In this document: positions 21,692 through 21,823 of the stretch, piece after piece
How the letters are laid out: each line of letters opens with the position of its first letter
Position numbering within the stretch: position 1 is the stretch's first letter
Origin: a virus
Lineage: Duplodnaviria; Caudoviricetes
Strand: one strand, 5' to 3'
DNA length: 64,000 bases
Virus record (IMG/VR): IMGVR_UViG_3300037312_000330
Span: 64,001 to 128,000 of that record
Translations under genes and position numbers: made by a program
Notes under the pieces: model-generated
Seen by the model: the letters and a program-made list of their open reading frames with translations, nothing else
What the model was told of the DNA's origin: nothing
Databases searched by the model: none

Positions 21692-21823
21692 TGTCGTTGT
21701 AATCTAGGGGCGATTGATGGTTCGAATCCATCCCCTCGCGCTGAGCGCATTCATTCAGAGTGCATTGAGCGCGAGGGTGGCAGAACTTGGATATTGCGCC
21801 AGCCGCGAAGCTGGGCCCCGACA
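21692..21823 (+). ncRNA. Circularly permuted tRNA-like module 1 (opened at the variable arm)
   Basis: Order: GGGGC, T arm GATGG-TTCGAAT-CCATC, acceptor 3' CCCTCGC, linker hairpin, acceptor 5' GCGAGGG, D arm, CCAGC/GCTGG hairpin, GCCCC. Confidence 0.75.

Follow-up and report, generated by a model that had tools for sequence, protein, structure and literature searches.

A real, conserved RNA domain with the shape of a rearranged transfer RNA (tRNA) is present at positions 21677-21855 (+ strand) of the window, the 64,000-nucleotide stretch of DNA analyzed in this study, which comprises bases 64001-128000 of the IMG/VR record IMGVR_UViG_3300037312_000330. This phage record of 248,884 bp is rated complete, corresponds to a 249-kb jumbo phage and has been seen in rhizosphere metagenomes. 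In the domain, termed module 1 here, a class-II cloverleaf is permuted, with the acceptor closed as a hairpin and the ends of the RNA leaving via the variable arm. Module 1 is probably the first of two non-decoding tRNA-shaped domains of a single phage noncoding RNA (ncRNA) that is functionally coupled to DUF7873, the protein family encoded by the preceding gene. The ncRNA, ~400 nucleotides (nt) in length (roughly 21677-22100, + strand), is likewise likely to represent a conserved class located beside DUF7873 in phage tRNA clusters. A first-pass annotation, made from the sequence alone, had described this region as one of a tandem pair of tRNA mimics, and the comparative data presented below support that description.

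Conservation and covariation

Relatives of DUF7873 were examined in 32 viral-contig loci, 80 metagenome-contig loci, 75 cultured-phage records and one cyanobacterial genome; individual loci are designated by L numbers. One or two modules were found near the gene in almost every DUF7873 locus, and the RNA adjoins DUF7873 in well above 100 phage genomes. The modules were first picked using a pattern that demands pairing, and the value of 99.8% pairing in the first alignment is therefore biased. A covariance model built from the viral-contig modules, including those of the window (R1), was run on 86 independent loci and gave strong matches (33-70 bits) in 70 of them, all on the DUF7873 strand and with clearly bimodal scores. 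The remaining 16 loci either have little or no flanking sequence or contain a long-insert form. Among 80 aligned independent modules, 99.5% of the T-arm and acceptor cells were paired, and double changes were observed for 12 of the 12 pairs. Furthermore, the helix at the anticodon position of module 2, which lies outside the selection pattern, was at least 5 bp in length in 84% of the loci, compared with 7% of cross-locus pairings.

Covariation across homologous loci had been proposed in the first-pass annotation as a check on the fold, and it is found in the T, acceptor and closing/anticodon-position helices over more than 100 modules. In module 1, the stem of the variable arm also covaries (GAGCU/AGCUC, GAACUC/GAGUUC, CAUUUUU/AAAAAUG, ACACAAC/GUUGUGU and CGGAGU/ACUCCG). 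A second covariance model, R2, was built solely from independent modules and contains no window sequence; it scored module 1 at 39.0 bits (E-value about 1e-11) and module 2 at 70.1 bits, and its next-best match (34 bits) was the tandem tRNA-Ser junction at 24542-24600, which is a known type of artefact. When the window was aligned with its two closest relatives, L052 (the DUF7873 of which is 74% identical to that of the window) and L081, RNAalifold retained both modules and the closing stem, with 26 pairs showing changes on both sides. The closing stem itself has undergone a compensatory change from UUUGGC/GCCAAA to UUCGGC/GCCGAA in both relatives. In a regular-expression scan of the whole 249-kb genome, these two modules alone were convincing.

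CCA is located directly after the acceptor 3' strand in 42 of the 80 independent modules, where approximately one would be expected by chance, and the discriminator is not conserved among them. The hexamer UUAUCG is more frequent on the + strand, where it occurs in 22 of 60 representative loci, than on the opposite strand (seven of 60). No sequence of the phage collection matched the RNA region in blastn, and the motifs of the region are not enriched across the genome of the phage itself. Direct repeats flank the modules, and the longest shared word was at least 7 nt in length in 47% of same-locus pairs versus 28% of cross-locus pairs. Such locus-specific repeats were considered as a protein-binding platform, but this enrichment is weak and they are retained as an observation only.

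Structure of module 1

Free folding of 21670-21860 yielded the whole permuted cloverleaf together with its outer stem at -75.7 kcal/mol (z = -3.8), and none of 200 shuffled sequences was as stable. The elements of module 1 are as follows.

21677-21855, + strand: module 1, class-II permuted cloverleaf including the closing stem, as obtained by unconstrained folding
21677-21684, + strand: 5' strand of the closing stem, GGUUUGGC, paired with 21849-55 in the minimum free energy (MFE) and centroid folds
21690-21706, + strand: single-stranded U-rich tract with U at every third base (GUU GUC GUU GUA AUC UA)
21707-21711, + strand: 3'-side strand of the variable-arm stem, GGGGC, paired with GCCCC at 21815-19
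21716-21732, + strand: T arm, GAUGG UUCGAAU CCAUC (GATGG at 21716-20, TTCGAAT loop, CCATC at 21728-32)
21733-21777, + strand: acceptor stem as a long hairpin (3' strand CCCTCGC at 21733-39, 5' strand GCGAGGG at 21771-77)
21740-21770, + strand: acceptor linker of 31 nt with an inner CAUUC/GAGUG hairpin
21778-21797, + strand: U8 G9 and class-II (Ser/Leu-type) D arm, GCAGAACUUGGAUAUUGC; the D arm proper, GCAGAACTTGGATATTGC, is at 21780-97
21799-21814, + strand: hairpin at the anticodon position, CCAGC-CGCGAA-GCTGG, with a 5-bp stem and a 6-nt loop; no anticodon loop
21815-21819, + strand: 5'-side strand of the variable-arm stem, GCCCC
21834-21855, + strand: CAUCAUCAUCGUUAC tract followed by the 3' strand of the closing stem, GCCAAAC (21849-55)

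The T arm, the capped acceptor hairpin, the class II-like D region and the anticodon-like hairpin with its 6-nt loop had all been recognized in the first-pass annotation and are present at these positions. The acceptor helix reaches a length of 10 bp (CCCTCGCGCT/AGCGCGAGGG), with another hairpin as its cap. As had also been noted, the acceptor 3' strand is followed by a G, G21740 (G CUG), and there is neither an unpaired discriminator nor a CCA. The proposed variable arm was correct in its inner part, GGGGC/GCCCC, but not in its continuation into TGTCG/CGACA, which shares one C with the inner stem and is replaced by CGUUG/UAACG in the MFE fold; the true outer closing stem, GGUUUGGC with GCCAAAC, lies further out.

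The D arm is nearly identical to that of the phage's own tRNA-Ser(GCU), UG GCAGAGUUGGUUAUUGC, and the module 1 D arms of relatives match phage tRNA-Leu. The hairpin at the anticodon position is variable: its loop is UGCGAA in L052 and UUCUAA in L081, and in the module 1 copies of relatives it has a GNRA tetraloop or a loop of 5, 7 or 9 nt, or the hairpin is absent. This variability, the 6-nt loop and the lack of a match from any tRNA caller bear out the earlier view that module 1 is probably not a decoding tRNA.

Tracts with U at every third base occur at 21690-21706 (GUU GUC GUU GUA AUC), 21832-21846 (GUC AUC AUC AUC GUU) and 22033-22044 (AUC AUC UUC AUC) and in the equivalent flanks in L002-L014, on the + strand only; tracts like the first of these flank the modules of close relatives. 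They can be read as Val/Ile/Phe codons leading to a conserved UAG in the window, L002, L035 and L039 (LYIIFIQTTPV and LFVIVVKTAV, each ending at the stop), as in the tag peptide of a transfer-messenger RNA (tmRNA). This candidate was rejected, since the two closest relatives, L052 and L081, do not maintain the frame and a stop is missing from L006, L010 and L011.

Module 2 and downstream elements

The second module and its surroundings comprise the following elements.

21900-21924, + strand: hairpin consisting of CCGGCC, a 13-nt loop and GGCCGG, just 5' of module 2
21934-22027, + strand: module 2, class-I-like permuted cloverleaf opened at the anticodon stem (ACUCG/UGAGU)
21934-21966, + strand: stem strand ACUCG (21934-38), followed by the variable loop, the T arm (21943-59) and the acceptor 3' strand (21960-66)
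21967-21997, + strand: UCCA (21967-70), consisting of U73 (21967) and CCA (21968-70), and a hairpin linker up to 21997
21998-22027, + strand: acceptor 5' strand (21998-22004), U8 A9, D arm (22007-21), G26 and UGAGU (22023-27)
22033-22065, + strand: 3' tail with the CAUCAUCUUCAUCCAAACC tract and the motif CAGUGUAGAC (22056-65), which is kept in L002, L052 and L081
22131-22188, + strand: strong hairpin after the RNA, without a U run

The point of permutation differs between the modules, as the first-pass annotation had stated: module 1 is opened at the variable arm and module 2 at the anticodon stem. The acceptor stem of module 2 is 7 bp in length; U73 is bulged, and the encoded CCA pairs with the leader in the hairpin. 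The heptamer CUAUACA flanks both ends of the module 2 stem, and this duplication is seen in the window only. A hairpin at the same place 5' of module 2 is found in phiRSL1, phiKp24 and L006. Both modules are trailed by a CATCATC...CCAAAC tract, again as described earlier (CATCATC...GCCAAAC at 21834-55 and CATCATC...CCAAAC at 22033-50).

The sequence GGUUUGG at 21677-83 has two possible pairing partners, GCCAAAC on the 3' side of module 1 and CCAAACC on the 3' side of module 2 (22045-22051). The second pairing would enclose both modules and represents a possible alternative outer closure; L052 retains this option through a UUUCG/CGAAA compensatory change, whereas L081 does not. Both acceptor linkers contain the hairpin GCGCAUUC...AGAGUG with the stem CAUUC/GAGUG (21745-21763 and 21973-21990), a motif that also occurs in the intervening-segment consensus of Rfam beta_tmRNA (positions about 117-135). 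As a general feature of the modules this hairpin was discarded, because it is present in only three of the 80 independent modules (it is lineage-restricted) and the first pattern scan was biased toward it. The hairpin at 22131-22188, at which a terminator scan detected no terminator, is possibly the 3' boundary of the RNA; terminator-like hairpins trail the RNA in relatives.

Association with DUF7873 and distribution

Both modules sit in a 565-nt gap between two genes.

20883-21659, + strand: DUF7873 gene, 258 amino acids (Pfam PF25283, E-value = 2e-66), the stop codon of which is 17 nt before the closing stem of module 1
22225-22518: GroES-like gene on the far side of the gap

The indels between the window, L052 and L081 are not multiples of three, which argues against small overlapping open reading frames (ORFs) in the gap. 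Thirteen ordinary tRNA genes follow downstream (22526-26431). In the other loci the flanking genes vary between phages, but the cassette is always in or beside a tRNA array, and the first module begins within ~100 nt of the DUF7873 stop codon in most of them. In the whole genomes of phiRSL1, phiKp24 (FBKp24), Mimi, RHph_TM30 and Vibrio D517, the top matches of the model adjoin DUF7873. The phages with the cassette have hosts among the Proteobacteria, Actinobacteria and Cyanobacteria, and DUF7873 is practically confined to phages, with a single match among 185,579 species genomes. In seven loci (L061-63, L097, L100, L102 and L105) a module precedes DUF7873, with a terminator-like hairpin between it and the start codon. 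The upstream position indicates that the RNA is a gene of its own and not merely a 3' untranslated region, and adjacency that persists when the order changes is what would be expected of functional partners.

The predicted structure of DUF7873 is confident, with a predicted local distance difference test score (pLDDT) of 89.7. Its best structural match is 3kdq, a Corynebacterium protein of no known function (Z = 9.4, root-mean-square deviation 7.2), and a profile search of PDB sequences, PHROGs and PADLOC gave nothing.

Several further observations concern the tRNA arrays and their surroundings. The array of the window contains a bacterial-like globin ORF (23096-23611, Pfam E-value = 9e-9) and a QueC-like ORF (26393-27091). 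At 26244-26344 there is an Rfam tRNA match of 101 nt (45.3 bits) that is not called by ARAGORN; its acceptor, D and T arms are in the normal order, with ~45 nt in place of the anticodon arm, and it represents either a tRNA with an intron or a further tRNA-like RNA that does not decode. A match of similar type in phiRSL1 (L049:4066-4189, 124 nt, 41.3 bits), also not called by ARAGORN, lies ~370 nt past module 2 and may be a tRNA with an insertion. RHph_TM30 (MN988521.1, 139506-140309) has three more strong matches (37-49 bits) ~5 kb downstream of the cassette, which may be added modules or tandem-tRNA artefacts. A permissive Rfam scan of 18400-21650 (E-value up to 1, group I model included) matched no family.

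Proposed mechanism and alternative explanations

Because the acceptor helix of module 1 continues without a bulge or CCA, this module would stay closed and intact, and could be neither charged nor used for decoding. Module 2, with its 7-bp acceptor, bulged discriminator and CCA, would be cut by RNase P and trimmed to the CCA, giving a nicked two-piece tRNA-like domain similar to two-piece tmRNA and to the YrlA RNA of Mycobacterium smegmatis. RNase P cutting and the presence of CCA have been shown experimentally for the latter, which also has a 7-bp acceptor stem (PMC4201824), and RNase P cutting and trimming are known for two-piece tmRNA (PMC11915505). The RNA may thus present tRNA elbows and an acceptor-T minihelix to tRNA-recognizing factors, and may act with DUF7873 as a ribonucleoprotein (RNP) or functional pair, as YrlA does with Ro60. 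It could serve as a decoy or sponge for factors that bind tRNA ends or as a scaffold, or the structure could protect the RNA that contains it. Elbows and one free CCA end without any decoding use would suit a decoy, sponge or scaffold acting with DUF7873, and charging by a single specific synthetase is disfavoured by the lack of conservation of the discriminator and of the acceptor sequence. More tentatively, and with rather less confidence than the existence of the coupled RNA, DUF7873 and the RNA might constitute a new phage RNP, a functional analogue of the Ro60-Y RNA complex with an unrelated protein, in which closed and RNase-P-opened, CCA-ended mimics engage host factors for tRNA handling or targeting. 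Such an RNP could, for example, be a decoy for enzymes or immune effectors that act on acceptor ends, thereby protecting the adjacent set of phage tRNAs.

A number of points weigh against a DUF7873-coupled ncRNA. The R2 score of module 1 (39 bits) is little above those of tandem-tRNA artefacts (34 bits), and the matches used to train R2 were gathered with R1, which held the window modules, such that the test is not fully independent. The partnership of DUF7873 with the RNA is suggested by the adjacency of their genes. Comparison of the DUF7873 fold with PDB, BFVD and AFDB using Foldseek, together with the VIA wide search, returned nothing informative, and the protein is mildly acidic to neutral (pI mostly about 6), which is atypical for an RNA-binding protein. 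No RNA run holding the stretch of the window or that of phiRSL1 was found. Finally, the 224-kb phage L038 (IMGVR_UViG_3300035698_007246) has no DUF7873 in a search with a positive control, but has similar permuted modules, so the RNA class is wider than the cassette and the protein is not strictly needed. The L038 modules are three in number, lie in a tRNA array on the - strand (matches at 6676-6735, 6269-6346 and 2157-2215) and include two with closing stems of ~20 bp and one with ACCA.

The same fold could instead be a cis element of the DUF7873 mRNA or of the tRNA-cluster transcript, directing RNase P cuts and leaving a nuclease-resistant tRNA-like 3' end on the mRNA, comparable to mascRNA for MALAT1 or to a viral 3' tRNA-like structure. 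The short distance of 17 nt between stop codon and closing stem, in which neither a sigma-70-like promoter nor a terminator was found, would fit this explanation, as would the position of the first module, mostly within ~100 nt of the stop codon, and the enrichment of CCA. It is nevertheless unlikely in view of the seven loci in which the module precedes DUF7873 with an intrinsic-terminator-like hairpin in between, the modules inside tRNA arrays of a phage that lacks DUF7873, and the promoter that the authors of the phiKp24 study predicted between the gene and the RNA. A true YrlA/YrlB-type Y RNA, with the Ro60 (Rsr) protein of the host as its binding partner, is a slightly weaker candidate. 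In its favour, both RNAs run from V through the T arm and the closed acceptor-like stem to the D arm, module 2 matches YrlA at 29.3 bits (E-value = 3e-4), relatives reach 32-38 bits, with some matches spanning the whole model, and YrlA RNAs are known in phages (PMC4201824). However, every score is far under the gathering score of 69 bits and module 1 has no match. In addition, the complete 248,884-bp genome has no TROVE gene (control genomes gave matches), and the motif GNCGAAN0-1G is absent from 21600-22250 and occurs in only four of 44 5' flanks of relatives, which equals background (0.07 per 90 nt). The constant neighbour is DUF7873 rather than Ro60, and the hosts span Actinobacteria, Proteobacteria and Cyanobacteria, whereas Ro60 is present in only about 5% of bacteria (PMC4201824).

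It is improbable that the modules are a two-piece (permuted) tmRNA, degenerate or serving as a decoy, that enters trans-translation or blocks it, even though module 2 matches positions 86-150 of beta_tmRNA, intervening hairpin included (39.8 bits, E-value = 7e-11), relatives score 24-40 bits and CCA is encoded. Two-piece tmRNAs occur in phages (PMC9004378), and a tmRNA form without a coding sequence in phage DS6A inhibits host tmRNA (PMC11915505). The alanine identity pair G3:U70 is absent, however: G3-C70 is present in both window modules, and G:U occurs in one of 80 relatives. A full tRNA-type D arm takes the place of the tmRNA D-loop, ARAGORN calls no tmRNA, the 39.8 bits compare with a gathering score of 84, SmpB was not found in the phage and module 1 is without any CCA. 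Nor is the candidate hydrophobic tag frame kept, the distance from tract to UAG being 18 nt in the window, 26 nt in L081 and 25 nt in L052. It is highly improbable that the modules are true circularly permuted tRNA genes, the transcripts of which would, as in Cyanidioschyzon merolae, have their open ends ligated and their acceptor stem opened to produce tRNAs able to decode. The 3' half does precede the 5' half across a removable linker, module 2 has U73-CCA and the heptamer CUAUACA is present at both ends of its stem. However, in module 1 the loop has 6 nt, the acceptor end is paired throughout and CCA is missing; furthermore, neither the open ends nor any anticodon are conserved, and the duplicated heptamer is confined to the window. 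Joining would give C37, which is unusual for a tRNA. A 7-nt loop with U33, a purine at 37 and a conserved anticodon is not found, the loops of relatives having 4 to 9 nt or the hairpin being missing. ARAGORN and the Rfam tRNA models do not call module 1, and no RtcB or Rnl2-type ligase was found in the phage genome, where the search for Rnl1 had no positive control. The least probable explanation, to which hardly any weight can be given, is that of decaying tRNA pseudogenes or a chance arrangement at a tandem-tRNA junction. Tandem paralogous tRNAs do mimic the pattern, as the 34-bit tRNA-Ser/Ser junction at 24542-24600 illustrates, and the region borders a tRNA array, but the acceptor strands of each module pair together and covary over more than 100 modules, the closing stems covary, and phages with very different hosts retain the same placement relative to DUF7873.

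Annotation and significance

No Rfam 15 family reaches its threshold on the RNA region, which is an unannotated gap in phiRSL1, Mimi and RHph_TM30, and no paper on DUF7873 or describing this RNA was found in the literature searched. In phiKp24 (vB_KpM_FBKp24, MW394391.1, 46041-46120; L050:3513-3597) an annotated tRNA-Sup-TTA overlaps the RNA. This call is composed of the hairpin 5' of module 2, the module 2 T arm and the acceptor 3' strand with ACCA, and the acceptor strands proposed for it fail to pair with each other; the suppressor tRNA published for phiKp24 is most likely a mis-call of the module RNA. This would correct an annotation that the published literature has treated as a suppressor tRNA.

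The tRNA clusters of phages are commonly interpreted as a supplementary supply for translation or as a safeguard against defences that cleave tRNAs. Here, a structured RNA in such a cluster retains the tRNA shape, drops decoding and is tied to one uncharacterized protein family, for which it provides the first functional lead. It also extends Y-RNA-like tRNA mimicry beyond Ro60. Several of the phages that carry it have been cultured and are tractable (phiRSL1, phiKp24, Arthrobacter phage Mimi, Rhizobium phage RHph_TM30 and Vibrio phage D517), and the RNA lends itself to tests of how RNase P, the CCA end and elbow recognition are used by phages.

Comparison with known systems

The tRNA cluster of phage T4 encodes the small stable RNAs C and D (species 1 and 2), the function of which is unknown and which are processed together with the tRNAs. 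They resemble the present RNA, by description only, in being phage-encoded and embedded in a tRNA cluster; to our knowledge, neither a link to DUF7873 nor a permuted cloverleaf is known for them. In Cyanidioschyzon merolae and certain green algae, permuted tRNA genes (PMC3978253) likewise encode the 3' half first, with a linker across the acceptor ends. However, those genes give decoding tRNAs through a bulge-helix-bulge cut and ligation (PMC3978253), whereas here there is no conserved anticodon loop, no such motif or ligase was found in the phage, and module 1 cannot gain an acceptor end.

The beta-proteobacterial two-piece tmRNA (RF01850) shares with module 2 the succession of T arm, acceptor 3' strand, NCCA, intervening hairpin and acceptor 5' strand; the match of module 2 extends into the intervening hairpin (CAUUC...GAGUG), and maturation by RNase P and 3' trimming would be expected for both. 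In contrast to the tmRNA, the phage RNA has no G3:U70, pseudoknots or conserved tag frame, has a true D arm, is accompanied by no SmpB that could be found and includes a module without CCA.

The closest likeness is to YrlA/YrlB (RF02553), as the first-pass annotation had suggested. The resemblance holds for the architecture, and YrlA is also the best Rfam neighbour, but membership of the family does not. Both RNAs have a permuted domain with a variable-position stem, T arm, loop-closed acceptor-like stem and D arm, with the ends at the bottom; both often occur as tandem pairs beside the gene of a partner protein on the same strand; and the M. smegmatis form, with its 7-bp acceptor, is cut by RNase P and receives CCA (PMC4201824). 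The differences are that the phage RNA has no Ro60/TROVE gene, which for YrlA is located within about 4 kb on the same strand, and no GNCGAAN0-1G, the proposed Ro60 contact near the 5' end (PMC4201824), and that it scores 29-38 bits against a threshold of 69. Binding by Rsr and modification by TruB and DusA are further characteristics of YrlA. As for the phage RNA, its module 1 is class-II-like and opened at the variable arm, about half of its modules have a genomic CCA, and it is sited in phage tRNA arrays. The RNA is thus akin to the permuted tRNA-mimic ncRNAs, YrlA and two-piece tmRNA, and what is new is its constant protein neighbour, DUF7873.

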